A stretch of DNA of 64,000 nt from positions 58,801 through 122,800 of the forward strand of contig JBBSAM010000003.1 in the NCBI GenBank assembly GCA_038252255.1, in the 5' to 3' direction. Position 1 is the first letter of the stretch, and every line of letters starts with the position of its first letter. Of the stretch, positions 7,120-51,499 are shown in pieces. The notes under the pieces are model-generated. The model saw only the letters and a program-made list of their open reading frames with translations. It was not told the origin of the DNA and did not search any database. The position numbers were made by a program, and so were the translations under genes. The stretch is from Acidimicrobiia bacterium (lineage in GTDB: Bacteria > Actinomycetota > Acidimicrobiia > IMCC26256 > JAENVU01).

Positions 7120-10100
7120 ATGCTCCATCTCTCGGCTTCCGATCGCGTCCGTCCGCTCGCGGACGCGCTCGCCGGGGTGCTGGCGACCCCGCTCCCCGAC
7201 CCGATGAAGCCGGAGTGGGTCGCGATCCCGACCGACGGGATGCTGCGGTGGCTGCAGCTCGAGCTGGCCCGGTCGCTCGGCGCGACCGGCCCGGGCCGCG
7301 GCGACGGTGTCGCGGCGAACATCGAGTTCCGGTTCCCCGACGCGCTGCGCCGGGCGGTGCTCGACGCGGACCGGGCCGACGGTGCCGCCGACCCGTGGCA
7401 CGTCGACCATCTCGTGTGGGCCGTGCTCGACGTGCTCCACGCGAGTCGCGATGACGACCGGCTCGGTCCACTCACCACCCTGCCCGCGGGCGGCACCTGG
7501 TTCGGCCGCGCCCGCCGCCTCGCGGACCTGTTCGATCGCTACGCGGTGCGGCGCCCGGAGCTGATCCGCCACTGGAACGAGCACCGCGACGTCGATGCCG
7601 CGGGGTTCAAGCTCGAAGCGCACGACCGGTGGCAGCCACATCTCTGGCGCCTCACGCGCGCGTGCATCGGCGAGCCGAGCCCGCCCGAGCGCTTCCCCGC
7701 CCTGCTCGACGGGTTGCGCGCCGGCACGCTCGAGCCGGAGCTCCCACCGCGACTCGCGGTCTTCGGCATCACCACCCTGCCCGGCGGCGCGCCGTTCCTC
7801 GACCTCGCGCACGCGCTCGCGCAGCACCGGGAGCTCCACCTCTTCCTGCTCGACCCGTCGCCGTCAGCCGTCGCGACCGTGCACGACTTCGCCCGCGCGG
7901 CCCACCCGGAGGCGGAGCTCCTGCGCACCGACGACGAGTCCGCGGCCGCCGTCCGCCATCCGTTGCTGCGCTCGTGGGGGCGTCCCTACCGGGAGCGGAC
8001 CGTCCTGCTCACCGCGGCCGAGCCCACGGGCTGGCCCGAGCCCCTCCGGATCGGCGACGTGAGCCACGACGACGACGCCGATGCCCGGCCGGCCACGCTG
8101 CTCGCCCGGGTCCAAGCCGACCTGCGGGCGGACGTGGTCCCGGCCGGCGACTTCGCGCTCGCCCCGGGCGACCACTCGATCCAGGTGCACTCGTGCCACG
8201 GGCCCGGTCGTCAGGTCGAGGTCCTCCGCGACGCGATCCTGCACCTGCTCGCGGACGACCCCACCCTGCGCGAGGAGGACATCGTCGTCCTGAGCCCGGC
8301 GATCGAGGAGTTCGCGCCGTGGATCGAGTCGGGCTTCGGGACGTCGGCCGACCGCACGCCCGGCGACGGCGCGCCGGGCCGGCCGCAGCTCGCGTACCGC
8401 ATCGCCGACCGGTCGTTGCGCGACTCGGTTCCGCTGCTCGCCGCGCTCGACACGCTGCTCGAGCTCGTCGCGGGTCGCTTCACCGCGTCGGCGGTGCTCG
8501 AGTTCCTCGCGCTCGCGCCCGTCCGCACCCGGTTCGACCTGGACGACGACGCCATCGCGGCCATCGGCCAGTGGATCACCGAGACGAACGTGCGCTGGGG
8601 TCTCGACGGCGCGCACCGCGAGCCGTGGGGCGTGCCGGCCGGGTACTCGGCCAACTCGTGGCAGGCCGCGCTCGACCGGCTGCTCATGGGGATCGCGGTC
8701 AGCGAGGACGACTGGGCGCTGGCGGCCGGGGAGATCGCGCCACTGGGGGTGGAGGGCGGCGACATCGTCGTCGCCGGACGCCTCGCCGACGTCCTCGCCC
8801 ACCTCGCCGAGATCGCAGCGGACCTGGAACGCCCCCGCGCCGCGGCCGAGTGGTGCACCAAGCTGCTCGACGTGAGCGACCGGCTGTTCTCGGTCGAGTC
8901 CTCGCAACAGTGGCAGCAGGACCGGCTGCGCCGGACCATCGCGGACATCGCCGACGCCGCCGCGGTCGGCGACCGCGCGTCCGGCGTCGAGCTGACCCTC
9001 GCGGATCTCCGCCGCCTGCTGGTGGAGCGACTCCGAGGCGCGCCGCGCCGGCCCGACTTCTTCCGGGGTGGGATCACCTTCAGCTCGCTCACTCCCCTGC
9101 GCTGGCTGCCGTTCCGGGTCGTCTGCCTGCTCGGCCTCGACGAGGACGCGCTCGGTACCGAGGCCGCCGACGGCGACGACCTCGCCGCGCTCGTGCCGCG
9201 CCTCGGCGACCGTGATCCCCGCGCCGAGCTGCGCCAGACCCTGCTCGAAGCGGTGCTCGCCGCGCGCGACCACCTCGTCATCACCCGCACCGGCCACAAC
9301 ATCCTCACCAACCAGGATGTGCCGGAGTCGGTCCCGTTCGCCGAGCTGCGCGACACGATCACGGCCACGTTGGCCGGCAGTGCCCGCAACCCGTTCACGG
9401 CTCAGGTCGAGACCGTCCATCCCCACCAGCCATTCGATGCCCGCTGCTTCGAGCCCGGGGCGCTGCGCCACGGGCCGTGGAGCTTCGACGCCACCGCGCT
9501 CGCCGGTGCGCAGGCGCGGGCGCGCCGCACGGACGAGACGGCGCCGTTCCTCACCCGGCCGCTCGCCGCACCCGCCGACCCGGCCCGGGTGATCACGCTG
9601 GCCGAGCTGCAGTCCTTCCTCAACCATCCCGTGAAGTGCTTCTTCGCCCGCCGCCTCGACGTCTACCTCCCTCGCGAGGAGGGCGGGCTCTCGGACCACC
9701 TGCCGATCTCGCTCGGCGGGCTGGCGGAGTGGTCGGCGGCGCAGCGGCTCATCGAGGCCCGGCTCGACGGGCGCACGAGCGAGCAGTGGGCGCGCCACGA
9801 ACGGGCGCTCGGCACGCTCCCGGCCGGCGGCTACGGCGATCTGGCCCTCGCCCGGATCACCGGCCTCGTCGACGCGCTGCTCTCGACCACCACCGCGCTC
9901 GGAGTCGACCCTCGCCACGACGACCCGCAGCCGATCGACGTCGAGCTCCCGGACGGTACCCGCATCGTCGGTGCCGTCGACCTCCGCTGCGGGTCGGAGC
10001 GCCCGGGTCCGGCCCGGCTGACGTTCAGCAAGGCCCAACCGAAGCATCACGTCGAGTCGTGGCTCGATCTCATGGCGCTCGTCGCGCACGATCCGGAGGC

Positions 10101-10614
10101 GAGCTGGCGCAGCGTGCACGTGCGCCGGAACACCGGCGGCACGAAACCGGACCCGCTCGAGCTCGTCGCGCGCGGCGCGACCGCCGAGACGCGACGCTCG
10201 GACGCACTCGCCGCGCTCACGGTCGTGGTGGACCTCTACCGCCGCGGGATGCGCGAACCGATCCCGCTGTTCACCAAGCTGTCCCGCAAGCTCTTCGACG
10301 GTGACGCCACCACCAACGACTGGCTCAACCAGAGCGGCTTCGCGGAGGGCGCGCAGGACCCGCACGTGCTCGCGTTCGGGACCCTCGAGCTCCACGAGCT
10401 GCGGGCACTTCCTGCCCGGCCCGACGATCCGGTGGGCCCGGCACCCGGGCGAGCGCAACGGTTCGCCGACTCCCTGTGGAGCACGGTCGAGAGCTCCGCG
10501 CAGATCCTGGACCCCGCCACGACGGACTCGGATGCCGACGCGAGCCGGAGACCGCCGGCGGCGCCGGATGCCGAGCCGGCGGACGAGCCGCCGGTCGTCG
10601 AGGCGGCGCGATGA
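7120..10614 (+). CDS. recC: Exodeoxyribonuclease V gamma subunit RecC
   Basis: 1164 aa. The N-terminus is RecC-like (MLHLSASDRVRPLADALAGVLATPLPDP...EWVAIPTDGMLRWLQLELAR). The stop overlaps the recB ATG (ATGA at 10611-10614). Confidence 0.9.
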   Translation: MLHLSASDRVRPLADALAGVLATPLPDPMKPEWVAIPTDGMLRWLQLELARSLGATGPGRGDGVAANIEFRFPDALRRAVLDADRADGAADPWHVDHLVWAVLDVLHASRDDDRLGPLTTLPAGGTWFGRARRLADLFDRYAVRRPELIRHWNEHRDVDAAGFKLEAHDRWQPHLWRLTRACIGEPSPPERFPALLDGLRAGTLEPELPPRLAVFGITTLPGGAPFLDLAHALAQHRELHLFLLDPSPSAVATVHDFARAAHPEAELLRTDDESAAAVRHPLLRSWGRPYRERTVLLTAAEPTGWPEPLRIGDVSHDDDADARPATLLARVQADLRADVVPAGDFALAPGDHSIQVHSCHGPGRQVEVLRDAILHLLADDPTLREEDIVVLSPAIEEFAPWIESGFGTSADRTPGDGAPGRPQLAYRIADRSLRDSVPLLAALDTLLELVAGRFTASAVLEFLALAPVRTRFDLDDDAIAAIGQWITETNVRWGLDGAHREPWGVPAGYSANSWQAALDRLLMGIAVSEDDWALAAGEIAPLGVEGGDIVVAGRLADVLAHLAEIAADLERPRAAAEWCTKLLDVSDRLFSVESSQQWQQDRLRRTIADIADAAAVGDRASGVELTLADLRRLLVERLRGAPRRPDFFRGGITFSSLTPLRWLPFRVVCLLGLDEDALGTEAADGDDLAALVPRLGDRDPRAELRQTLLEAVLAARDHLVITRTGHNILTNQDVPESVPFAELRDTITATLAGSARNPFTAQVETVHPHQPFDARCFEPGALRHGPWSFDATALAGAQARARRTDETAPFLTRPLAAPADPARVITLAELQSFLNHPVKCFFARRLDVYLPREEGGLSDHLPISLGGLAEWSAAQRLIEARLDGRTSEQWARHERALGTLPAGGYGDLALARITGLVDALLSTTTALGVDPRHDDPQPIDVELPDGTRIVGAVDLRCGSERPGPARLTFSKAQPKHHVESWLDLMALVAHDPEASWRSVHVRRNTGGTKPDPLELVARGATAETRRSDALAALTVVVDLYRRGMREPIPLFTKLSRKLFDGDATTNDWLNQSGFAEGAQDPHVLAFGTLELHELRALPARPDDPVGPAPGRAQRFADSLWSTVESSAQILDPATTDSDADASRRPPAAPDAEPADEPPVVEAAR

Positions 10615-13600
10615 GCGAGCGCACGCGCTTCGAGCTCACGGGCCCGTTGCCGGTCGGTCGCGTCGCGATCGAAGCGAGTGCCGGGACGGGCAAGACCTAC
10701 ACCCTGGCCGGGCTCGCGGTGCGGTACGTGGCCGAGGCCGCGGTGCCCGTGGCCGAGCTCCTGGTGGTCACGTTCACGCGGGCGGCCGCGGCGGAGCTCC
10801 GCGATCGTGTCCGGACGCGGCTCAGCGACGCCGCGCGCGCGTTGCGCAGCAGCTCCGAGTCCTTCGACGATCCCCTGCTCGGGCACCTCGCGTCCACGGA
10901 CCGCGAGATCCGGGCGGAGCGCATCGAGGCCGCGGTCACGGATTTCGACGCCGCGACGATCACCACGATTCACGGCTTCGCCCAGCAGGTGCTCACCACG
11001 CTCGGCTCGACCGCGCCGGGCGACCTCGACGCCACCTTGGTCGACGACGCCCGCGAGCTCGTGACCCAGGTCTGCGCCGACGTGCTGGCCGCGGCCGCGG
11101 TGGCCGAGCCGCCCGTCGCCGAGGACCTGCCCAAGCTCGGTCGGCTGGTGCAGCTGGTGCTCACGGTGCTGGGCAACCCGGGCCTGGCGATCGTCCCGGG
11201 GCCCGACCCCGAAGACTCGTCGGAGCTCAGTGCCCGCTACCGGCGGCTGGTCGATCAGGCGGTCGACGAGGTGCAGCGGCGCCGGCGCGACGCCGGGACG
11301 ATGTCGTTCGACGACGTGCTGACCCAGCTCCGCGACGCGCTCCGCGACAGCCCCGCGGTCGCGGCCTCGCTCCAACGTCGTTACCGGGTGGCGCTCATCG
11401 ACGAGTTCCAGGACACCGACCCGGTGCAGTGGCAGATCTTCTCGACGCTGTTCGGCGGGGGGACGAGCCAGACGTCGCTCGTGCTCGTCGGCGACCCGAA
11501 ACAGGCGATCTACGCGTTCCGCGGCGCGAACGTGCACACCTACCTCGAGGCCGCGTACGAGCCGGGCACCGAGCGCTCGACCCTCGGCATGAACTGGCGC
11601 TCGGACCAGGCGTTGCTCGACGCGTTGGAGCACCTGCTCCACGGGGCGACGTTCGGTGATCCGCGGATCGGCTTCGTGGACGTCGAGACCGCGCCCGCGC
11701 ACGTCGCGCGCCGGCTGCAGACCGCGGCCGGCACCCCCCTCCCCGCGCTGGCCGTGCGCGCCGCGCTGGGCGCCGACCTCGAGCGCAACAAGACCCGCAA
11801 GCCGCCGCCGATCAAGGTGGACGACGCCACTCGCGCGATCGCCCGCGACCTCGCGCGCCAGGTCCAGCTCCTGCTGGAGGAGGCCTACCTCCCCGGCGGG
11901 GAGGGCGGGACGGGAGCGGACGGAGCCAGCGCGACGCAGCGGGTCCGGCCGCACGACATCGCGGTGCTCGTCGGGACCCACGCCGACGCGACCATCATGC
12001 AGTCGGCACTGCTCCGGCAGGGCATCCCCGCCGTCGCGCACCGGGGCGGCAGTGTGTTGGAGTCGCCGGCCGCGATCCAGTGGCGGTGGCTGTTGACCGC
12101 GCTCAGCCGACCCTCCGACGCGTCCCGCGCGCGCACCGCCGCGTTGTCGTGGTTCTTCGGCTGGCCCGCGGATCGCATCGACACCGCGAGCGACGAGGAC
12201 CTCGCGGGCGTGCAGGAGCGGCTCTACCGGTGGGCGGAGATCCTCGAGACGCGCGGCGCGGTGGACTTCTGCGCCCACGTCTGGTCCGAGAGCGACGTCA
12301 CCACCCGGGTGCTCGAGACGCCCGACGGGGACCGCAACCTCACCGACCTCGACCATCTCGCCCAGCTGCTCCAGGCGAGCGCGTCCGGCCACCGGCCGGG
12401 TCCGGTCGCGCTGCTCGCCGCGCTCGCGCTGCTCGAGGAGGCGAACAAGATCGAGCTCGAGAACGACGTCACCGCGCGCCGCATCGAGTCCGAAGCCGAG
12501 GCCGTACAGGTCATGACGGTGTACGCGGCGAAGGGCCTCGAGTTCCCGGTGGTGTACGTCCCGACGCTGTGGAAGAACAACTTCTCGCGCCGCGAGTGCA
12601 TCTACCAGGACCCGGACACCGGTGCCCGGACGCTGGACGTCACCAAGGCGATCACCAGGTCCGGCGTGTGGCCGAGCAAGGCAGGGGCCGAGGCGCGCAA
12701 GGAGCTCGCGGAGCGGGAGGCGGTCGGCGAGAACCTGCGGCTCCTGTACGTCGCGCTCACCCGCGCCCGGCACCAGACGGTCGTGTGGTGGAGCCGGGCC
12801 CAGGACAGCGAGGCGACCGGCCTGGCCCGGGTGCTCTTCGCCCGCGACGAGGGCGGCTCGCTCCGGCCGGACCTGTTCGAGGCGGACACGGTGCCGTTGC
12901 CGGCCGATGCCGACGCGGTGGCGTGGCTCGCACCCGTGTTCGCCCCGGTCGGCGACGCGGTGGCGCTGACCGAGACGGGCCGGGCGGACGGGGCCGTCCC
13001 GCGGTGGATCCCGGCCGACGACGCGACGACCCCCGCACAGCTGGAGCTCGCCGAGCTCGGGCGGATGCTCGAGCGGCCCCACCGGCGCTGGTCGTTCAGC
13101 GCGATCAGCGACCGCGCGCACACACTGGACCTCGACCCGGACGACGACACGCTCGGTGACTCCGGCGCGGCCGACGAACCCGCCGATCCCGAGGCGGGCG
13201 AGGCGATGGCCGGAGCCGGGACCGGGGAAGCCACCGGACCGGTCGCCGAGCTGGTCACCGATCTGCCGCTCGGCGCGGTGCCGGGCGGCACGACCTTCGG
13301 GTCCATGGTCCACGAGCTGCTCGAGCACGTGGACTTCGCCGCCGCCGACCTCGACGCGGAGCTCCAGGCGCGCATCGACGAGCGGCGGCGCTGGAGCCCG
13401 TCACCGGTGCTGGGCGAGGAGCTGCGCGCGGGCCTGCGGGCCGCGATCGAGTCGCCCCTCGGCCCGCTGTTCGACGGGCGCCGGCTCCGGGACCTGACCC
13501 GCGCCGACCGCCTCGACGAGCTGAGCTTCGAGCTGCGCCTCGGCGAGGGCGGGCGCCGGGCGACGGACCGGGACATCGGCGCGCTCATGGCCCACCACCT

Positions 13601-14105
13601 CGCCGGCGACGACCCGCTACGACCGTGGGCCGAGCGCCTCGCCGCCGGTCTCTTCGACGTCGAGCTCGCCGGCCACCTCACCGGTTCGATCGACGCGATC
13701 TTCCGGGTCACCGACACCACCGAGCTCTTCGCCCCACACCGCTTCGTCCTCGTGGACTACAAGACGAACCTGCTCGCCGAACGCGGGCAGCCGCCGCGGT
13801 CGGCCGACTACCACCCGAGCCGGCTGCCGGCCGCGATGGAGGAGCACCACTACCCGCTCCAGGCGCTGCTCTACTCCGTGGTCCTCCACCGCTACCTGCG
13901 CTGGCGCGTAGAGGGCTACGACCCCGCCGTGCACTTCGGCGGCGCCGCCTACCTCTTCCTGCGCGGGATGACTGGGGCCGGTACGCCGGTCGTGGGCGGC
14001 CAACCGCACGGTGTGTTCGGTTGGGCGGTGCCGCCCGCGCTCGTCACCGACCTGAGCGACCTCCTCGACGGCCAGCTCCTCGACGTACTGGCGGCCGGCG
14101 CATGA
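10611..14105 (+). CDS. recB: Exodeoxyribonuclease V beta subunit RecB (UvrD-type helicase plus PD-(D/E)xK nuclease)
   Basis: Walker A motif EASAGTGKTYTLAG, then DEFQDTD, and C-terminal nuclease-type sequence (LVDYKTN). The in-frame extension upstream of 10611 is Arg/Gly-rich and overlaps recC. Confidence 0.92.
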   Translation: MSERTRFELTGPLPVGRVAIEASAGTGKTYTLAGLAVRYVAEAAVPVAELLVVTFTRAAAAELRDRVRTRLSDAARALRSSSESFDDPLLGHLASTDREIRAERIEAAVTDFDAATITTIHGFAQQVLTTLGSTAPGDLDATLVDDARELVTQVCADVLAAAAVAEPPVAEDLPKLGRLVQLVLTVLGNPGLAIVPGPDPEDSSELSARYRRLVDQAVDEVQRRRRDAGTMSFDDVLTQLRDALRDSPAVAASLQRRYRVALIDEFQDTDPVQWQIFSTLFGGGTSQTSLVLVGDPKQAIYAFRGANVHTYLEAAYEPGTERSTLGMNWRSDQALLDALEHLLHGATFGDPRIGFVDVETAPAHVARRLQTAAGTPLPALAVRAALGADLERNKTRKPPPIKVDDATRAIARDLARQVQLLLEEAYLPGGEGGTGADGASATQRVRPHDIAVLVGTHADATIMQSALLRQGIPAVAHRGGSVLESPAAIQWRWLLTALSRPSDASRARTAALSWFFGWPADRIDTASDEDLAGVQERLYRWAEILETRGAVDFCAHVWSESDVTTRVLETPDGDRNLTDLDHLAQLLQASASGHRPGPVALLAALALLEEANKIELENDVTARRIESEAEAVQVMTVYAAKGLEFPVVYVPTLWKNNFSRRECIYQDPDTGARTLDVTKAITRSGVWPSKAGAEARKELAEREAVGENLRLLYVALTRARHQTVVWWSRAQDSEATGLARVLFARDEGGSLRPDLFEADTVPLPADADAVAWLAPVFAPVGDAVALTETGRADGAVPRWIPADDATTPAQLELAELGRMLERPHRRWSFSAISDRAHTLDLDPDDDTLGDSGAADEPADPEAGEAMAGAGTGEATGPVAELVTDLPLGAVPGGTTFGSMVHELLEHVDFAAADLDAELQARIDERRRWSPSPVLGEELRAGLRAAIESPLGPLFDGRRLRDLTRADRLDELSFELRLGEGGRRATDRDIGALMAHHLAGDDPLRPWAERLAAGLFDVELAGHLTGSIDAIFRVTDTTELFAPHRFVLVDYKTNLLAERGQPPRSADYHPSRLPAAMEEHHYPLQALLYSVVLHRYLRWRVEGYDPAVHFGGAAYLFLRGMTGAGTPVVGGQPHGVFGWAVPPALVTDLSDLLDGQLLDVLAAGA

Positions 14106-44154: not shown

Positions 44155-44793
44155 ATGCAGATTGCCTTCGTGCTCTACGACCAGTTCACGGCGCTCGACA
44201 TCGTCGGGCCGTTCCAGACGCTCGCGGACCTTCCCGGTGTGGAGGCCGTGTTCGTCGCGCCGAAGCGAGGCCCGGTGCCGGACCACACCGGCCGGCTGTC
44301 ACTGACCGCGACCGCGGCACTCGACGAGGTCACCGAGCCGGAGGTCATCGTGGTTCCGGGCGGGTTCGCCGACCGGCACGCCGGCCCGGACGACCCGGTC
44401 GTCCAGTGGATCCGCGCGGTGCACCCGACCACGACGTGGACCACGAGCGTCTGCACCGGCTCGATCTTCCTGGGGCTGGCCGGGGTGCTCGACGGTCTCG
44501 ATGCGACCACGCACTGGACGGCCTACGAGCGTCTCGCCGCGCTGGGGGCTCGTCCCACCGAGCAGCGGGTCGTCGAGCGCGGCAAGGTGATCACCGCCGC
44601 CGGCGTGTCGGCGGGCATCGACATGGGTCTCACCCTCGCGTCGCGCCTGTTCGGAGATGACGTCGCGTGCGCGGTGCAGCTCGCCATCGAGTACGACCCG
44701 CAACCGCCGTTCGATTCGGGCGCGCCGAGCAAGGCATCACCGGAGCTGCTCGCGTTCGTCAGCGAGCTGATGGGCGCCACGGCTCCCGCCTAG
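44155..44793 (+). CDS. DJ-1/PfpI family protein
   Basis: VVPGG...SVCTGSIFLGLAGVLDG...THW...ITAAGVSAGIDM. Confidence 0.85.
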   Translation: MQIAFVLYDQFTALDIVGPFQTLADLPGVEAVFVAPKRGPVPDHTGRLSLTATAALDEVTEPEVIVVPGGFADRHAGPDDPVVQWIRAVHPTTTWTTSVCTGSIFLGLAGVLDGLDATTHWTAYERLAALGARPTEQRVVERGKVITAAGVSAGIDMGLTLASRLFGDDVACAVQLAIEYDPQPPFDSGAPSKASPELLAFVSELMGATAPA

Positions 44794-44807: not shown

Positions 44808-47800
44808 TCAGGTCGCGTCGAGCTCCGTGAGAAGCCGTTCGTACCCGTTCGCCTCTGCCACCCGCGCCACGACGGTGGCCAGCGTCTCGGACGCGTCGTC
44901 TGCCTGATCCGACTGCCGGAGCACCTGCACCGTCCCGGCCTGAGCCTGCGCCACCCAGTACGGCGCCCGCATCGCCTCGGACATCGCGGCCGCGGCCTCG
45001 AAGTGCGCCAGCGCGAGTGACGTGTCGTGCCGGACGGCGGAGAGCGCTCCGAGCCAGTGGTGAACGCATCCCAACACCGCGCCGCCGGCACCGAACACCA
45101 CGACGTGGTCGGCGAACGGCTCGAGCATCTCGATCAGGAGGTCGGCCAGGTCGAGATCCCCGGTCCGGGCCGCCGCACCGGCGAAGAGGGAGATCGCGGC
45201 GAGCCAGAAGCCGTCGCGCTGCAACCGGTGCCCGTCCGGGCCGAGCGCCTGGCGCACGATAGGCACGACGTCACCGGTCCGGCCGGTCTCTGCGCACGCG
45301 ACCGCGGCGAGCGCCAAGCCGGCCCAGTACCCGTGCTGGTGCTCCGGCGCGTTGCTCAGGCCGGTGACGAGCTCGGCGAGCCGGCCCTGCTGGTAGCGGA
45401 TGACGAAGAGGTGGAGCACATGGGCACCGACGACGTCGGTCTGCCCGAGCTCGCGACCACGCGTGAGCGCACCACGAGCCCGCTGCTCCGCCGCGCTCAG
45501 GTCACCGTGCAGCGTCGCCTGCGTCGCCCTCAGCGCCATCGACCAGTAGATGTCCGGTGGGCTCCGCAACGTCGAGGCCTGGCGCTCGTACTCTTCGAGC
45601 CGGTCGTCGAACTCGTCCACCCGACCGTTCTGCAGCAGATCGGAGAGGTGCAGCCGCTCGGCCCGGAGGTGGAGGTGCCGGCAGTCGTCGGCGCGGGTCA
45701 GCTCCACCGTGCGAGCCGAGAGCTCGAGCCGTTCGCATCGCGCCCCGGGCTCGTGGGTCAACCACCGGTGGTACGCCAGGTTCCCGGCCGCCCGGGCCGC
45801 GGTGTCGCCCAGCTCCTCGCCGAGGGCGAGCGCGGCGCGCGCGGCCTCACCCTCACGATCGGGATCGGTGTAGTAGAGCGTCGCCGCCAGGCTGTTGAGC
45901 ACCTGCACCCGGCGCAGCCGATCGGACTCGCCGAGCTGCTCCAACGCATCGTCGAGCAGCGCGAGCACGTCCGACTGCAGGTGGAGTGCCACGCTCCACG
46001 GACCGGTCGCGGCCACACCGATGTCGGCGAGCAGCTCCGGGTCCCCGGCGGTGCGCGCGAAGTCCGCCGCCACCATGTAGGCATCCCGGGCCCGTTCGAG
46101 CTGGCCGCCGTTGTCCAGCGCACGCGCGAGCCCGAACTGGATCTGGCCCAGCTCCCGCGCGCTCCAGCGAGCGGCGCGGCCCAGCTCCAGCGCCTGCTCG
46201 AACCAGGGCGCGGCCTCGGAGAACGCGAACCGGTCCACCGCGTCCTCCGCGGCGCACCGGGCGTAGCGCGCGGCCTTCTCCGGATCGCCGAGCGGGAGGG
46301 CGGCGACGAAGTGCCGGGCCATCTCGGCCGCGCTCGGCGCCGCGCCCGTCGGGTCGGTCGCTTCGAGCGCGATGCCAACCTGCCGATGCAGCTGCCTCCT
46401 GCAGTCCTCCGGGATCTCGAGGTAGACCGCGTTGCGAACGAGCGCGTGGGAGAACTCGAACATGTCGCGGTCGCCGGGGTACTCCGCGAGCAACCTCGAT
46501 GCGAGGCTCTCCTCGACCGCGTCGAGGGTCTCGTCGGCCGTCAGGCCGCAGGCCGCGGCCAGCAGGTCGGCCGAGAAGAGCCGGCCGACGACGGTCGCCA
46601 TGTGCAGCACGTCGCGGCCGCGATCGGAGAGCCGCTCGACCCGCCGGCTCACGAGCGCCCGCACCCCGGCCGGCGCCATCGTGCGCAACATCTCCTCGAG
46701 CACCGCCGCGTCGGAGGTCTCGATGCGGTGCTCGTCGAGCTCACGGAGCAGCTCGCGGATGAACAGTGGGTTGCCGCGCGTCACCGACGCGATGGTCGGA
46801 ACGAGACCGACGAGCGTCTGCACCGCGTCGGGTGGTGCGGTGGCGCGCAGCATCGCCCGCACCTCGGTGTGATCGAAGCCCTCGAGCCGGACGTGCACGC
46901 GCCGGGTCCGCGGCGCGAGCCGATCGATCAGCTCGCGCCGGCTCGAGCTCAGCTCGTCGTCCCGGTAGGTCGCGAGGACGAGGAGCCCTTCGAGCTCGGG
47001 GTCGCGCAGCAGGTGCCGCAGCACCAGCAGCGTCGGCTCGTCGGCCCAGTGGAGGTCCTCGACCGAGAGCACCACGGGCCGCCCCGGGGCGCGCGCGATG
47101 GTGGCGGCGATCGCGGCGAAGAGCTGGTACCGCTGCACGGTCGCGGTGGCATCGGCACTCGCGTGGGCCCCGGTCATCGTCCCCGTCAGACCGAGCACCG
47201 AGAGCTCACCGGGCAGCTCGCCACCCGTGGCATCGAGGCGCGGCACGAGCGCGCGGAGGATCTCCACCCACGGTTGGTACTCACCGGGCGGATCCGGGTC
47301 GCAGCGACCGGTGAGAACGATCGCACCCGCGGCGGTCGCCCGCCGGATCGTCTCGCCGAGCAACGTGCTCTTCCCGACCCCGGCATTGCCGGTGATGAGC
47401 ATGAGCCGTCGCTCGTCCGCCACGGCGGCTCCGTACACGCCGCGAAAGTCCTCGAGCTCCTGGCGCCGACCGATGAACCGCCCGGGGGGCTCCGGCCGCT
47501 CGGGCACCGCGACCGACGACCGGCTCTCCGGCGCCCAATCGAGGCCGGGCCGCTGCAGCAGCACGTCTTCCTCGAGCTTGCGCAAAGCGAGCGACGGACC
47601 GATGCCGAGCTGCTCGTCCAGCCGGCGGGTGAGGTCGGAGCACGCCCGAAGCGCTTCCGCCTGCCGGCCACTCCGGTAGAGCGCGAGCACGAGCTCCTCC
47701 GTGAGCCGCTCGCGCAGCGGAAACGCCTCGATCGCCGTAGTCAGGAGCTCGATGACGACGGCATGGTCGCCGAGCGTCATGCGGGCCTCGGCCAGCTCCT

Positions 47801-48299
47801 CGAATGCGGCGGCGCGCAGGTCCTCCAAGCGGGCGAGGTCTCCTCGCACCGCCCGCAGGTCACGGGCGTCGGCCAGCGGCGGCCCACGCCAGAGCGTGAA
47901 GGCACGTGAGAGATGGCGGACCGCCGCGTCCGGATCACCTTCGGCGTTCGCATCGCGACCGAGCACGAGCAGGCGCTCGAACCGCTCCGCGTCCAGCTCG
48001 TCCGGCTCCACCCGCAGGAGGTAGCCGTGCGGGCTCGCGGGGAGCCGGATGCTCGGCGCGTTCGTGGCCCGCTCGGGCTCCAGGATCTGGCGCAACCGCC
48101 TGATGTGGACCCGGAGCGCCGTTGCCGCGCTGGGCGGCTGATCCTCTTCCCAGAGCTCCTCGATCAGCTGCTCGGCCGGCACCGGCCGGTTGGCGCGCAG
48201 GGTCAGCAGGGTCAGCACGGCTCGGGGCTTGGCCCCTCGCAGCGAGGTCGGCCCGTTACCGTGATCGACCTCGAGCGGGCCCAACACCCGAATCTCCAC
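44808..48299 (-). CDS. AfsR/SARP family transcriptional regulator (OmpR-type wHTH + BTAD + NB-ARC/AAA ATPase + TPR-like C-terminus)
   Basis: GTG start with an AGGAGG RBS. The protein begins VEIRVLGPLEV. ALRVHIRRLRQIL, Walker A GNAGVGKSTLL and a long helical repeat tail follow. Confidence 0.9.
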   Translation of the reverse strand: MEIRVLGPLEVDHGNGPTSLRGAKPRAVLTLLTLRANRPVPAEQLIEELWEEDQPPSAATALRVHIRRLRQILEPERATNAPSIRLPASPHGYLLRVEPDELDAERFERLLVLGRDANAEGDPDAAVRHLSRAFTLWRGPPLADARDLRAVRGDLARLEDLRAAAFEELAEARMTLGDHAVVIELLTTAIEAFPLRERLTEELVLALYRSGRQAEALRACSDLTRRLDEQLGIGPSLALRKLEEDVLLQRPGLDWAPESRSSVAVPERPEPPGRFIGRRQELEDFRGVYGAAVADERRLMLITGNAGVGKSTLLGETIRRATAAGAIVLTGRCDPDPPGEYQPWVEILRALVPRLDATGGELPGELSVLGLTGTMTGAHASADATATVQRYQLFAAIAATIARAPGRPVVLSVEDLHWADEPTLLVLRHLLRDPELEGLLVLATYRDDELSSSRRELIDRLAPRTRRVHVRLEGFDHTEVRAMLRATAPPDAVQTLVGLVPTIASVTRGNPLFIRELLRELDEHRIETSDAAVLEEMLRTMAPAGVRALVSRRVERLSDRGRDVLHMATVVGRLFSADLLAAACGLTADETLDAVEESLASRLLAEYPGDRDMFEFSHALVRNAVYLEIPEDCRRQLHRQVGIALEATDPTGAAPSAAEMARHFVAALPLGDPEKAARYARCAAEDAVDRFAFSEAAPWFEQALELGRAARWSARELGQIQFGLARALDNGGQLERARDAYMVAADFARTAGDPELLADIGVAATGPWSVALHLQSDVLALLDDALEQLGESDRLRRVQVLNSLAATLYYTDPDREGEAARAALALGEELGDTAARAAGNLAYHRWLTHEPGARCERLELSARTVELTRADDCRHLHLRAERLHLSDLLQNGRVDEFDDRLEEYERQASTLRSPPDIYWSMALRATQATLHGDLSAAEQRARGALTRGRELGQTDVVGAHVLHLFVIRYQQGRLAELVTGLSNAPEHQHGYWAGLALAAVACAETGRTGDVVPIVRQALGPDGHRLQRDGFWLAAISLFAGAAARTGDLDLADLLIEMLEPFADHVVVFGAGGAVLGCVHHWLGALSAVRHDTSLALAHFEAAAAMSEAMRAPYWVAQAQAGTVQVLRQSDQADDASETLATVVARVAEANGYERLLTELDAT

Positions 48300-48365
48300 C
48301 CGCACCTCCTGCCGGAAACGGTGGGGCGCGAAGGCTACAACCGGGGGGCATCCGAGCGCCGCGAC

Positions 48366-48387
48366 GCGCTTTACGCGCGCTTTACGC
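48366..48387 (+). promoter_or_regulatory. Perfect 11-bp tandem direct repeat (GCGCTTTACGC x2), candidate SARP operator
   Basis: It lies in the divergent region between the SARP gene and the 48454 gene. A TACAAC -10-like hexamer sits 8 nt downstream (48396-48401). Confidence 0.45.
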
Positions 48388-48453
48388 CCACCGCGTACAA
48401 CGACGACCACGAGGAACCCGTCGCCTCACCACCCCGACCCGAAGGAACTCCCT

Positions 48454-48846
48454 GTGACGCACGAATCCCGTAGGCCCGCGCCCCCGTCCGCTTTGCGTCA
48501 CGCGGAGGCCCCGCTCGTCCTGGCCGCGAACGCCGGCTTCGCCGATCCCCAGTTCCGCGAGACGGTCCGGGAGATGCATCGCCAGGAGTACCCGCTCCTG
48601 CGCATGGTCACCGATCTCGGGCTCGACGACGAGCTGACGGCCGAGATCCGCTCCGTCCTCGAAGGCCTCAGCCCCGAGGTCGTGGCGGGGATCCGTGCCT
48701 CGACGCTGGCGATGCTCGACCGGGAGGAGCAGGCCCTCCCGCTCGACTGCTCCGTCGATCCGGGTGAGCTCCAGCGTGGGGTTCCTGTCGCGGTCGAGGT
48801 CAACGAGGTCGGCGGCACGGACACGATCCAGGTGTCGCGCGCCTGA
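48454..48846 (+). CDS. Hypothetical protein (130 aa)
   Basis: GTG start with a GAAGGAA RBS. No recognised domain. Confidence 0.55.
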   Translation: MTHESRRPAPPSALRHAEAPLVLAANAGFADPQFRETVREMHRQEYPLLRMVTDLGLDDELTAEIRSVLEGLSPEVVAGIRASTLAMLDREEQALPLDCSVDPGELQRGVPVAVEVNEVGGTDTIQVSRA

Positions 48847-48851
48847 CCGCC

Positions 48852-49481
48852 GTGACCGAGCCGATCCGGAAGATCGGCCTGGCGTCGGACGTACCGGAGG
48901 TGAGCTTCGACGCGCTCGAACAGGTCGCTCACGCGCTCCATCAACAGGTCACCCGCGATCTCGGGCCGATCTGGGGCATCGACGCGGCCGTACGCGCGTT
49001 CCCGGGCACCAGCGCGGTGCCACCCGGGTACTGGCCGCTCGTCGTCGTGCGCGACCTCGACGGGGGCTCCGGCCTGCATCGCAACGCGAGCGGCCGGCCG
49101 AGCGGTCTCGTCAAGCTCCGCCCGCTGTGGTCGCTGACGGCCAGCCACGAGTGTCTCGAGATGCTGATCAACCCACTCGGTGATCGCGTGGTCATCGGCC
49201 CGTCGCCCGCGGCACCCGATCGCCAGGTCGAGCTGCTCGTCGAGGTCTGCGACCCGGTGCAGGCCGCCTCGTTCGGCTACCGGATCGGCAACGTGCTCGT
49301 GTCGGACTTCGTGACGCCGAGCTACTTCGACTTCCCGCCGGGCTTCGTCGCCCGGTACAGCTTCCGCGAGACCGTCACCTCTCCGCGTCAGGTGCCGCCG
49401 GGTGGCTGCCTCACCTGGTTCGAGCCGCGGACCCAGCGGTGGCTGCAGCGGACCTTTCTCGGGGTTCGGGAGGTCTCGTAG
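48852..49481 (+). CDS. Hypothetical protein (209 aa)
   Basis: GTG start 5 nt after the upstream stop. It contains SHECLEMLINP. No recognised family. Confidence 0.6.
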   Translation: MTEPIRKIGLASDVPEVSFDALEQVAHALHQQVTRDLGPIWGIDAAVRAFPGTSAVPPGYWPLVVVRDLDGGSGLHRNASGRPSGLVKLRPLWSLTASHECLEMLINPLGDRVVIGPSPAAPDRQVELLVEVCDPVQAASFGYRIGNVLVSDFVTPSYFDFPPGFVARYSFRETVTSPRQVPPGGCLTWFEPRTQRWLQRTFLGVREVS

Positions 49482-49496: not shown

Positions 49497-50024
49497 CTAG
49501 CCGATTCCTTCGAGGCGTTGCTGCGGGGAGGCACCCGGCGGCACGTGGCCTTCGAGCCCGAGCAGGAGGCGCTTGCGCTCCAGCCCGCCGCCGTAGCCGG
49601 TGAGGCTCCCGTCGGCGCCGATCACCCGGTGGCACGGGACGATCACCGCGATCGGGTTCGCGCCGTTCGCGAGGCCGACAGCGCGCGCGGCGGACGGCTT
49701 CCCCACGCGCCGCGCCAGCTCGCCGTAGCTGGTGGTCGTTCCGTACGGGATCTCGCAGAGCGCGTTCCACACGCGCCGCTGGAATGGAGAACCGTCCAGC
49801 CGCAGCGGCACGTCGAACTCGGTGCGCGCGCCGGCGAAGTACGCGGATAGCTGCTCCCGTACTTCCGCGAACGGCTCGTCGGCTCGTTGCCACTCCGGGC
49901 GCAGCGTCACCGGGCGCCGCCCTTCCTGCATGCAGAGCCCCTGGAGCGCGTGCCCGTCGCTGAGCAGCAGAAGGTCTCCGATCGGGCTCGCCACGTTCGT
50001 GTACCAGGTCACCTCGTTGCTCAC
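49497..50024 (-). CDS. ogt: Methylated-DNA--protein-cysteine methyltransferase
   Basis: The PCHRV active site and the YGELA helix are present. There is a GTGA overlap with the upstream ada/alkA gene. Confidence 0.9.
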   Translation of the reverse strand: MSNEVTWYTNVASPIGDLLLLSDGHALQGLCMQEGRRPVTLRPEWQRADEPFAEVREQLSAYFAGARTEFDVPLRLDGSPFQRRVWNALCEIPYGTTTSYGELARRVGKPSAARAVGLANGANPIAVIVPCHRVIGADGSLTGYGGGLERKRLLLGLEGHVPPGASPQQRLEGIG

Positions 50025-51499
50025 GCGGCCACCTCGGCGTCGCCGGCCGGGCCCGCAGTCGCCTGAGCCCACAGATGCTGCACCGCGTAGGCCCGGTACG
50101 GTCGCCACGGTTCGGCGAGCCGCGCCACCGCCGCCGGTCGCGAGTTGAGTCCGAGACCCTCGAGCGCGTGGCGGATACCGAGGTCGGTCGGGAGGAAGGC
50201 GTCGGGATCCCGCAAGACGCGCATCGCGACGTACGCCACGGTCCACGGACCGATGCCGGGAAGCGCGAGCAGCTGTCGTTGCGTCTCGTCGCGCTCCGTT
50301 CCCGCATCGAGGACGATGCTGCCGTCGGCCAGTGCCCCGGTCAGCGCGAGCAACGCGCGACGGCGGGCGGCCGGCATCGCGAGACGGTCGGGGTCGCCCT
50401 CCGCGATCGCCTCCGGTCGCGGGAACACGTGGGTCACGCCACCGAGCGGGCGCGCCAGCGGTGTCCCGTGCTCCGCGACGAGCCGCCCGGCGAGCGTGGC
50501 CGCGCCCGCCAGCGAGACCTGCTGGCCGAGCACCGCGCGCACCGCGAGCTCGTCGCCGTCCACGGCACCTGCCACCCTTCGCCCCGGTTGCACCCGGACC
50601 AGCGGGCCCAGCAGGGGATCGGCGCCGAGCGCGTCGACGACGGCGTGCGGATCGGAGTCCAGGTCGAGCAGCGCACGACACCGTTGCACCGCGGTCGCCA
50701 GGTCGCGGAGGTCGTCCAGCCAGAATCGAGCCCTCACGTGACCGTCTCCGGGGCGCAGCTCGACGATCCCGGCGCCGCGGGGCAGACCCAGGCTGCGCCG
50801 GTACACACCGTTGACTGCCTCTTCGACACCCGGCACCGCGCGGGCGGCAAGGAACGCGAGAAGTGCACCGGCGCCGAGCGGCGCGCGGTACGGAAGGCGC
50901 AGGTCCACCGCACCGCTCCCCTCCGGTCGACCATGGCGGCCGGCGCGGGCGCGGAGCGCGCTCGGTGTGGTGGCGAAGACCTCCTGCACGGTGGCGTTGA
51001 ACTGGCGCACGCTCCGAAAGCCGGAGGCGTATGCCACCTGGGCGATCGGCAGGTCGGTCGTCTCCACGAGCACCCGCGCTGTCTGCGCCCGTTGCGCACG
51101 TGCGAGCGCCAAGGGCCCGGCGCCGACCACGGCGACGAGCTGGCGGTGCACGTGGCGTTCGGCGTAGCCCAGCCGGCTCGCGAGCCCGGTGACGCCCTCG
51201 CGGTCCACGATGCCGTCGGCGATGAGCCGCATGGCGCGGCCCACGAGGTCAGCCCGGCGGTCCCACTCGGGCGAGCCCGGAGTGGCATCCGGCCGGCAGC
51301 GCTTGCAGGCACGGAACCCGGCGGCCTGCGCCGCGGCAGCGGTCGCGTAGAAGCGCACGTTGCGGCGCTTCGGGGTCCGGGCCGGGCAGCTCGGCCGGCA
51401 GTAGATCCCGGTCGAGGTCACCCCGCAGAACACCCAGCCGTCGAAGCGCGGATCGCCGGTCTCCACGGCGTGCCAGCTGCGGTCGGGGTCGAAGATCAT
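50021..51499 (-). CDS. Ada-AlkA fusion: Ada Zn-binding domain + AraC HTH + DNA-3-methyladenine glycosylase II (HhH-GPD)
   Basis: CRPSCPAR...CKRCRP is followed by an AraC-type HTH and an AlkA-type C-terminus (LPGIGPWTVAYVAMR). Confidence 0.9.
   Translation of the reverse strand: MIFDPDRSWHAVETGDPRFDGWVFCGVTSTGIYCRPSCPARTPKRRNVRFYATAAAAQAAGFRACKRCRPDATPGSPEWDRRADLVGRAMRLIADGIVDREGVTGLASRLGYAERHVHRQLVAVVGAGPLALARAQRAQTARVLVETTDLPIAQVAYASGFRSVRQFNATVQEVFATTPSALRARAGRHGRPEGSGAVDLRLPYRAPLGAGALLAFLAARAVPGVEEAVNGVYRRSLGLPRGAGIVELRPGDGHVRARFWLDDLRDLATAVQRCRALLDLDSDPHAVVDALGADPLLGPLVRVQPGRRVAGAVDGDELAVRAVLGQQVSLAGAATLAGRLVAEHGTPLARPLGGVTHVFPRPEAIAEGDPDRLAMPAARRRALLALTGALADGSIVLDAGTERDETQRQLLALPGIGPWTVAYVAMRVLRDPDAFLPTDLGIRHALEGLGLNSRPAAVARLAEPWRPYRAYAVQHLWAQATAGPAGDAEVAA

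Follow-up and report, generated by a model that had tools for sequence, protein, structure and literature searches.

Results

Gene content of the locus

We analysed a 64,000-nucleotide stretch of DNA from an Acidimicrobiia bacterium (GenBank assembly GCA_038252255.1, contig JBBSAM010000003.1, positions 58,801 to 122,800 of the forward strand), hereafter the window, and in it a large gene for a regulator of the SARP (Streptomyces antibiotic regulatory protein) class together with two small genes, A and B, on the opposite strand. The SARP gene (44808-48299, minus strand) encodes 1163 residues with an OmpR-type winged helix-turn-helix (wHTH) and a BTAD domain, a P-loop STAND-type NTPase, and a C-terminal region of approximately 550 residues. 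Across a spacer of 154 nt lies the divergent gene A (48454-48846, plus strand, GTG start, 130 residues), followed after 5 nt (48847-48851) by gene B (48852-49481, plus strand, GTG start, 209 residues), which encodes a soluble protein, the short form of a widespread unannotated family.

The G+C content of the window is about 72%, which makes most of its long open reading frames (ORFs) spurious. The G+C fractions at the first, second, and third codon positions were 0.78, 0.47, and 0.89 in gene A and 0.71, 0.50, and 0.90 in gene B, values typical of real genes, and this pattern was not seen in the other-frame ORFs overlapping A and B. When the window was compared with the orthologues in two related loci (L002 and L103), the ratio of nonsynonymous to synonymous substitution rates (dN/dS) was 0.27-0.28 for A and 0.15-0.23 for B. 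A and B are real genes under purifying selection; the original prediction, which had proposed two ORFs 5 nt apart at these positions, was borne out by the ORF calls, the codon signal, and dN/dS.

In the regulator, the N-terminal Trans_reg_C (1.7e-10) and BTAD (3.2e-37) matches and the central AAA_16 match (2.8e-25) all passed the Pfam cut-offs, and the sequence contains a Walker A motif (GNAGVGKST) and a Walker B-like motif (VLSVEDLHWAD). Its earlier description as a SARP-NB-ARC-TPR regulator holds for the wHTH, BTAD, and AAA_16 portions, whereas tetratricopeptide repeats (TPR) were detected in the C-terminal region only below threshold (TPR_2, E 0.0027, 18 bits against a cut-off of 27). A search of PDB sequences matched the N-terminal 260-320 residues or so to EmbR (2.7e-33; residues 3-260) and AfsR (5e-28). 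In a phmmer comparison with AfsR (8k60), SARP residues 4-324 alone aligned, and EmbR scored higher.

Conservation of the linkage between the SARP gene and gene A

Linkage was scored from the A side, using loci collected through homologues of A with adjacent DNA. In all 17 such loci, namely the window, L002, L102, L103, contig P0136, nine metagenome loci, and L099-L101, A adjoined an orthologous SARP/AAA_16 gene of approximately 1100-1170 residues. The entire neighbourhood was syntenic in L002 (about 76% identity), which hence carries little functional information. Scanning metagenomes with the alignment of A yielded 12 loci, nine of them with upstream DNA, and in each of these nine A was divergent from an orthologous SARP gene of about 1160 residues (47-68% SARP identity). 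On contig P0136, A was again divergent from the SARP gene, and the other flanks differed. The three most distant relatives of A (28-35% identity) also lay beside a large SARP gene: directly downstream of it on the same strand in L099 and L100, after a 48-nt gap with a ribosome-binding site, and divergent from it in L101 (28% A identity). The original prediction had offered the loss of this linkage in related genomes as a possible refutation; the linkage survived down to approximately 28% identity.

The other neighbours of A changed between lineages. The genes downstream of A varied by locus (histidine phosphatase, class III cyclase, and others), and no gene cluster travelled with the SARP gene and A. 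Among the large ORFs of the window, which encode RecB/RecC-type proteins, an Ig-domain protein, an LPG synthase, an acyl-CoA synthetase, and transporters, there were no polyketide synthase, nonribosomal peptide synthetase, or terpene genes, and biosynthetic genes were likewise absent within ±10 kb in the syntenic L002 and from L099-L101.

The distribution of B was different. B was absent from all nine metagenome A loci, including those with 0.8-4.6 kb of downstream DNA, and at least 12 loci carried A without B. Neither A nor a large SARP gene was present in any of 80 distant B loci. All four loci with a 130-residue A (window, L002, L102, and L103) carry a short B 4-5 nt downstream, and no terminator was predicted between A and B in a scan of the region; in this clade A has also been extended at its N-terminus by 17 disordered residues and has acquired a 5' leader containing a ribosome-binding site. 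The deeply conserved unit is SARP plus A, not A plus B, because all 17 A loci are linked to the SARP gene and B joined them in the window's immediate clade alone. The proposal that A and B form a unit thus fails on two counts, the absence of B from A loci outside this clade and the absence of A from the 80 B loci.

Two further observations concern these loci. In P0128 (ENA contig, 88,748 bp), a 223-residue product starts as A (87% identity, residues 1-86) and ends in a B-like sequence (PPGYWPLVVVRNLD); a frameshift or a misassembly at the A-B junction probably accounts for it, and not a true fusion. Cyclic-nucleotide genes recur beside the SARP-A pair, though arranged differently from locus to locus, with genes for cyclic-nucleotide-binding proteins in L090 (2-385), L099 (2965-3522), and L100 (2964-3548) and, in L094 (2173-2742), a class III cyclase-like gene that is convergent with A. 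Their recurrence could hint at the input signal of the SARP, or could be an actinobacterial coincidence.

The promoter region of gene A

The spacer between the SARP gene and A contains a perfect tandem 11-nt repeat (CGCGCTTTACG, twice) at 48365-48386. The upstream SARP-box repeat, TTTACGC at 48370-48376 (plus strand), lies in it, and the downstream TTTACGC (48381-48387, plus strand) is spaced 11 nt from the first. A -10-like hexamer, TACAAC (48396-48401, plus strand), follows at a distance of 8 nt from the heptamer or, with the repeat taken as a hexamer, of 9 nt. The predicted 5' leader of A is about 46 nt in the window clade and includes a Shine-Dalgarno-like GAAGGA (48441-48446, plus strand), 7 nt before the GTG of A and present also in L002, L102, and L103.

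All 15 loci in which A and the SARP gene are divergent keep the upstream box and carry TTTRCN-N5-TTTRCN upstream of A, in spacers that are otherwise unalignable. In 14 of the 15, a TAnnnC/G hexamer follows 9 nt after the repeats (10 nt in L088), in the forms TACAAC, TATAAC, TAGAAC, TAGAAG, TATCAC, TAGACC, and TACACC; in L101 the repeats are kept but lack a clear TAnnn hexamer behind them. In four loci (L089, L090, L094, and L096), the hexamer is followed after exactly 6 nt by the ATG of A, as in leaderless mRNA, and the hexamer can therefore be read as the -10 element of a leaderless transcript. Read in this way, it would place the 8-bp repeat cores at approximately -29 to -22 and -40 to -33.

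According to published work, the direct repeats of SARP-dependent promoters are spaced by one helical turn of 11 bp or by 22 bp, and 8 bp separate the 3' repeat from the -10 element (PMC10936776); in the cryo-electron microscopy structure of AfsR with RNA polymerase the afs box comprises two 11-bp repeats from -19 to -40, of which the first 8 bp each are contacted (PMC10936776). Upstream of A, repeats spaced by 11 bp were found at the SARP position, and the 8-bp distance from the 3' repeat to the -10 was found when counted from the heptamer, the transcription start in the window being a predicted one. The repeat core, CGTTTACG, resembles the afs repeat consensus CGTT(T/C)ATCGNN (PMC10972967). 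By position and spacing, the direct repeats upstream of A have the canonical SARP-box geometry in the register of the afs box. A literature search for TTTACG in connection with SARPs found nothing relevant.

In the whole 64-kb window there is a single occurrence of the exact motif, against about 0.2 expected by chance even at two mismatches. A second match, with two mismatches, lies at 44174-44190 (TCTACGACCAGTTCACG), near the start of the DJ-1 gene and by the end of the CoA-transferase ORF; at least two box matches were obtained in 7 of 100 shuffles, and this match is consistent with chance. The degenerate motif was unique in the window and in every locus checked, save for one extra minus-strand match in L101. 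A scan of the region for standard sigma-70 promoters found none, which fits the expectation for an activator-dependent promoter, and the spacers between the repeats and the -10-like hexamer (9 and 20 nt) would suit a -35 element in neither case.

No boxes precede A in the tandem loci L099 and L100, where their absence, the 48-nt gap, and the ribosome-binding site are consistent with co-transcription of the SARP gene and A. Repeats with 11-nt spacing were observed 40-50 nt upstream of the SARP start in both loci (ATTAAC…GTTAAC at 3545-3562 of L099 and TTAACT…CTAACT at 3556-3573 of L100); they point weakly to an autoregulatory site with diverged specificity and to an autoregulated SARP-A operon.

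The same spacers showed other features. On the minus strand, a putative -10 element of the SARP gene, TAGCCT (48332-48337), lies approximately 33 nt before the SARP GTG; GAAGGCTAC is kept in all four loci of the A+B clade, and elsewhere the position reads AACGGTAC (TACCGT on the minus strand). It is plausible that this conserved TAGCCT/TACCGT element is the -10 of the SARP gene. In L097 (approximately 232-283), an ATG 6 nt past the -10-like hexamer opens a mini-ORF of 11 codons whose stop overlaps the ATG of A (ATGA), which suggests a leaderless upstream ORF translationally coupled to A. In the predicted 5' leader of A, two 21-nt stretches, 48397-48417 (ACAACGACGACCACGAGGAAC) and 48428-48448 (ACCACCCCGACCCGAAGGAAC), form an imperfect direct repeat with 71% identity and a spacing of 31 nt.

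Protein A

The A family is rare, with 16 clusters recovered by an indexed search and 85 by an exhaustive HMMER profile search of 1.84 billion protein representatives. Its members are almost all stand-alone proteins of 110-135 residues; FAZ1 and an adhesin also appeared among the profile matches and were rejected as large, repeat-driven, and spurious. A plasmid BLAST search with A gave no match. The family is acidic (median pI 4.6) and lacks a hydrophobic segment, and its near-invariant residues are H42, M51, L55, L72, V77, I80, R81, P96, and C99. No internal repeats were found in the family alignment.

The model of A (predicted local distance difference test, pLDDT, 80) consisted of five helices packed on a three-stranded sheet, with the first 17 residues disordered. 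The A sequence had no match in Pfam, NCBIfam, PHROGs, or PADLOC, and a Pfam search with all 62 members of the alignment also gave nothing. Neither the comparison of the model with PDB structures using Foldseek nor the comparison of the profile with PDB sequences returned anything significant. Profile positions 56-96 (residues 62-100, approximately) showed a weak likeness to the N-terminal helix and 'P..C' element with which every functional unit of molluscan haemocyanin begins; with a summed E of 0.04 and per-domain E of at least 40, it is non-significant and probably due to chance.

Protein B and its family

B belongs to a family of more than 1185 homologous clusters. It was found in 268 of approximately 185,000 species-representative genomes, distributed over Acidobacteriota, Proteobacteria, Actinomycetota, Planctomycetota, Verrucomicrobiota, Chloroflexota, Bacteroidota, Gemmatimonadota, and other phyla, and on 10 large plasmids. 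Nearly all members have about 280 residues and carry at the C-terminus a helical tail of about 70 residues, which is poorly conserved. A small ORF follows B in at least 54 of 81 B loci (L007-L086), with a median length of 68 residues and usually beginning within a few tens of nucleotides of the B stop. Examples lie in L003 (8848-9051) and L105 (6940-7149); PGAP annotates them as hypothetical, and they have no Pfam match. The small partner bears the motifs RAxRLREQIExL and SPREFIxRRMREL, and its first helix resembles the last helix of the B tail (HHalign probability 79%). B and its small charged partner look like an undescribed two-gene unit. Among ORFs of at least 70 residues, generic ABC ATPases were the sole recurring neighbours of B; the small ORF was found at a lower size limit. 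The B of the window has neither the tail of about 70 residues nor the small downstream partner, no copy of which was found elsewhere in the window. That A might be the missing tail of B or its usual partner was considered and rejected (HHalign probability below 8%).

B had no match in Pfam, NCBIfam, PHROGs, or PADLOC, nor in a profile search of PDB sequences, in line with the original prediction, which had recognised no known domain in either protein. It had also remarked on a segment of B, SHECLEMLINP, that looked like a metal site without being HExxH. Its SHECLEML part (codons 49143-49166, plus strand; S98-L105) lies on a helix spanning residues 93-106, and H99, E100, and E103 are invariant in the 121 aligned sequences. 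The other invariant polar residues in this alignment are H76, D134, and D152, with D78, D107, and C133 nearly so; G110 is also invariant.

Zincin and mini-zincin metallopeptidases such as snapalysin (M7) and astacin carry motifs of the type HExxHxxGxxH/D. The model of B (pLDDT 94; predicted template modelling score 0.90) has the order β-α-β-β-β-β, then the helix with H99, E100, and E103, and then a mostly β C-terminal half. In the model, this order (β1-αA-β2-β3-β4-β5-αB) corresponds to that of the zincin N-terminal subdomain, with H-E-x-x-(ligand) on αB followed by D107 and G110. The best PDB neighbours were metzincins, namely leishmanolysin, snapalysin (probability 0.66), astacin, and ADAMTS4, none of them significant. 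That B is a zincin-like metal-dependent hydrolase is a lead suggested by the model, which we rate at somewhat less than an even chance. Several points weigh against it. The Foldseek E values were 0.09 or higher and the template modelling (TM) scores 0.38 or lower, with BRCT and flavodoxin-like folds scoring alike; the zincin-defining HExxH is not present, its second His being an invariant Glu (HExxE); B lacks the Met-turn and αC, and its C-terminal half is mostly β; and profile libraries gave no match, including Pfam searched with all 121 members of the alignment. A literature search for the HExxE variant found no precedent, the published 'HEXXE' being a loose spelling of HEXXH. Of the checks proposed in the original prediction, structure prediction with Foldseek placed neither A nor B significantly in a known PDB family. 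B has no signal peptide and is probably cytoplasmic.

The only significant structural neighbour of B was a Caudovirales phage protein from BFVD, A0A6J5KQ96 (Foldseek E 1.1e-7, TM 0.60-0.63 over about 200 residues). The likeness is structural, at 14% identity; the phage protein is unannotated and gave no functional information, and a BLAST search of phage genomes with B found no match at the sequence level.

Some members of the B family occur in distinctive settings. On plasmid pRsp_Pop5_3 of Rhizobium sp. Pop5 (L104, 5995-8454), an 819-residue protein (WP_258155631.1) fuses an N-terminal B domain, with TASHECIEML intact, through an unannotated linker of about 450 residues to a C-terminal phospholipase D (PLD)-like domain (PLDc_2). 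In Acidimicrobiia metagenome-assembled genomes (L003-L005, 1-8843), a long-form B stands beside a 262-residue BTAD-only protein and contractile-injection-system genes (sheath, gp19-like tube, T4 baseplate, and Pvc16_N), an arrangement of one lineage that did not recur in the 80 loci. In Singulisphaera sp. GP187 (L006, 1-8969), genes for DO-GTPase1 and GAP1-N1, two families of NTPase-based conflict systems, precede a B homologue at a distance of a few genes, in a region with many unannotated small ORFs.

Flanking genes and other features of the window

The flanks were as originally described, with a CoA-transferase and a DJ-1/PfpI gene on one side and DNA-repair genes on the other. There, ogt (49497-50024, minus strand) is convergent with B at a distance of 15 nt and is accompanied by ada-alkA (50021-51499, minus strand); a ZnuA/ABC zinc-uptake set also lies on this side. 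In L002, a gene for a 667-residue PQQ-like beta-propeller protein (11025-13028) is placed between B and ogt on the opposite strand and overlaps the B stop by 4 nt; the window does not have this gene. Two large adjoining genes at 7120-14105 encode a RecC-like protein (Exonuc_V_gamma and RecC_C) and a UvrD/RecB-like helicase, and with ogt and ada-alkA they make the window rich in DNA-repair genes. An Rfam scan of the window gave no match.

Discussion

A predicted regulator-output module

We consider it likely, from the linkage and the promoter architecture, that the SARP and A form a module like AfsR and afsS, with A as its output and B as a lineage-specific passenger. The SARP would be a STAND-type switch whose TPR-like region and P-loop domain respond to a signal, by analogy with AfsR. 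Two SARP protomers would sit side by side on the two TTTACG(N) direct repeats, 11 bp apart, in place of a -35 element, and would recruit RNA polymerase to the weak TACAAC -10, driving transcription of A. A, a small and acidic cytoplasmic protein that represents a new family, would act as the conserved output of the module or as its partner. In the lineage of the window the transcript would also carry B, translationally coupled 5 nt after A. B may have been captured from a family that normally bears its own tail and small helical partner, both lost here, and its expression would thereby have come under the SARP. The loss of tail and partner where SARP control began leads us to speculate that they restrain B. 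Control of the cassette by the SARP, as originally proposed, is strongly indicated by the conserved repeats with 11-nt spacing, which are unique in the window; B is not a member of the conserved unit.

Some points weigh against this module. The transcription start of A, the binding of the SARP to the repeats, and activation are all predicted from sequence, as are the co-transcription of A and B and any biochemistry of their products. The -10 hexamers end in C or G and not in the usual T, and the published 8-bp spacing fits when the repeat is counted as a heptamer only. A is without a detectable relative of known function in profile and Foldseek searches. Linkage was tested from the A side alone, and the window covers 64 kb of the genome. 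Finally, a protein that binds the SARP physically would account for the strict co-inheritance, and for the apparent co-transcription of the tandem loci, just as well as a mere target would.

This last point is the core of an alternative that we regard as a real, if minority, possibility: A would be mainly a physical partner of the SARP (a co-sensor, an anti-activator, or an adaptor on its TPR or NTPase region), with the boxes serving feedback and the regulon lying elsewhere. The co-inheritance extends over all 17 loci, deep divergence, and two gene orders, A and the SARP gene are apparently co-transcribed in L099 and L100, A is acidic and small, and TPR domains usually mediate protein-protein contacts (PMC10972967); moreover, in comparative genomics regulator-target and regulator-partner pairs look alike. 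The SARP-type promoter before A, however, makes A at least a target, and its contact with the SARP is hypothetical. Both readings can hold together, and A could just as well be a partner.

We give little credence to the idea that the SARP is an ordinary activator of a secondary-metabolite cluster outside the window, with A and B as unrelated neighbours. Most characterised large SARPs, such as PolY and RslR3, are cluster-situated (PMC10972967), and the examined DNA amounts to 64 kb of the genome. Against this stand the lack of biosynthetic genes among the large ORFs of the window and in the syntenic relative, flanks of the SARP-A pair that differ in every lineage, so that no cluster travels along, and the SARP-type promoter directly before A. 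An equally slim chance attaches to the view that the TTTACG repeats serve as ordinary -35-like elements or bind some other regulator and are kept by kinship alone. TTTACG does match TTGACA at four of six positions, all loci are orthologous, which makes some conservation expected, and PhoP also binds overlapping repeats in the afsS promoter (PMC10972967). Neither repeat, however, has a workable -35 spacing, and in otherwise unconserved intergenic DNA the repeats are kept together with their 11-nt phase and the hexamer, the repeats as far as L101, at 28% protein identity; the repeats also vanish before A exactly where A joins the transcription unit of the SARP gene. Least probable, and largely refuted by its distribution, is a self-contained A+B system (toxin-antitoxin, or an enzyme with a chaperone or inhibitor) with an incidental SARP, which could draw on the 4-5 nt gap in four loci, on the small partner ORF usual for B homologues, and on the occurrence of some of these in variable or conflict-type neighbourhoods, on plasmids, and in one PLD-like fusion, but which is contradicted by at least 12 loci in which A stands without B, the lack of A from all 80 distant B loci, the unrelatedness of A to the partner or tail of B, the failure of PADLOC to recognise either protein, and a SARP-A linkage far deeper than that between A and B.

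Comparison with known SARP systems

The proposed SARP-A module shares several features with AfsR-AfsS of Streptomyces coelicolor. The wHTH and BTAD, P-loop STAND NTPase, and TPR-like C-terminus come in the same order; AfsR, like the SARP here, lies outside a biosynthetic cluster and has an adjacent small gene as its direct target; and the target promoter has no good -35 and two 11-bp direct repeats at approximately -40 to -19, as in the A promoter, whose repeat core is similar to the consensus CGTT(T/C)ATCG. There are also differences. The SARP here is not a full-length orthologue of AfsR, since the N-terminal 320 residues or so alone align and the protein is 170 residues longer. The gene order is tandem in AfsR-AfsS and mostly divergent here, and a second gene, B, is attached in the lineage of the window. 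AfsS is a protein of approximately 63 residues with short repeats. A, at 110-135 residues and with a helical bundle and a small sheet, is unlike it, a distinction drawn against the general description of AfsS; being twice as long and folded, A is in our assumption not an AfsS.

The cluster-situated large SARPs PolY and RslR3 and the SARP-LALs PimR, SanG, and FilR likewise combine a SARP domain with heptameric direct repeats over the target -35, and regulators of the PimR type have a single regulatory gene as target. The SARP here is accompanied by no biosynthetic cluster in any of the lineages examined, and A is its sole conserved companion. A 2024 SARP review (PMC10972967) describes AfsR as a global regulator that acts directly on the small neighbouring gene afsS, and the original premise that large AfsR-type SARPs usually sit in or near biosynthetic clusters was too strong in view of AfsR itself.

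Implications

The SARP class and its promoter logic are known, and no major concept is altered by these results; the pairing of a distinct SARP with a small protein and the A and B families are not described in the literature searched, in which nothing relevant on large orphan SARPs with small partners turned up either. In its most far-reaching form, which is unlikely to hold in full, the SARP and A would be an unrecognised cluster-independent module of soil actinobacteria and a second paradigm of the AfsR-AfsS kind, with A, a new class of small acidic protein (conserved His42 and Cys99), as both sole dedicated output and partner of the SARP, and B would be a new HExxE variant of the zincin-like hydrolases in which restraint by tail and partner has been replaced by SARP-dependent transcription.

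Among known SARPs, AfsR alone has so far been found to regulate globally and outside a cluster, and it does so through one adjacent small gene (PMC10972967). If a second, unrelated lineage of large SARPs is indeed tied to a small protein of its own, the design of a STAND-type SARP with a small effector would be a general one, and the conserved boxes upstream of A offer a testable pair of promoter and regulator. The B family is sizeable and unannotated, with more than 1100 clusters in many phyla and on plasmids, a very confident model, an invariant motif resembling a metal site, a recurrent small partner ORF, and no Pfam entry, and it is a good candidate for biochemical study and for a new domain family, the latter as is the A family.

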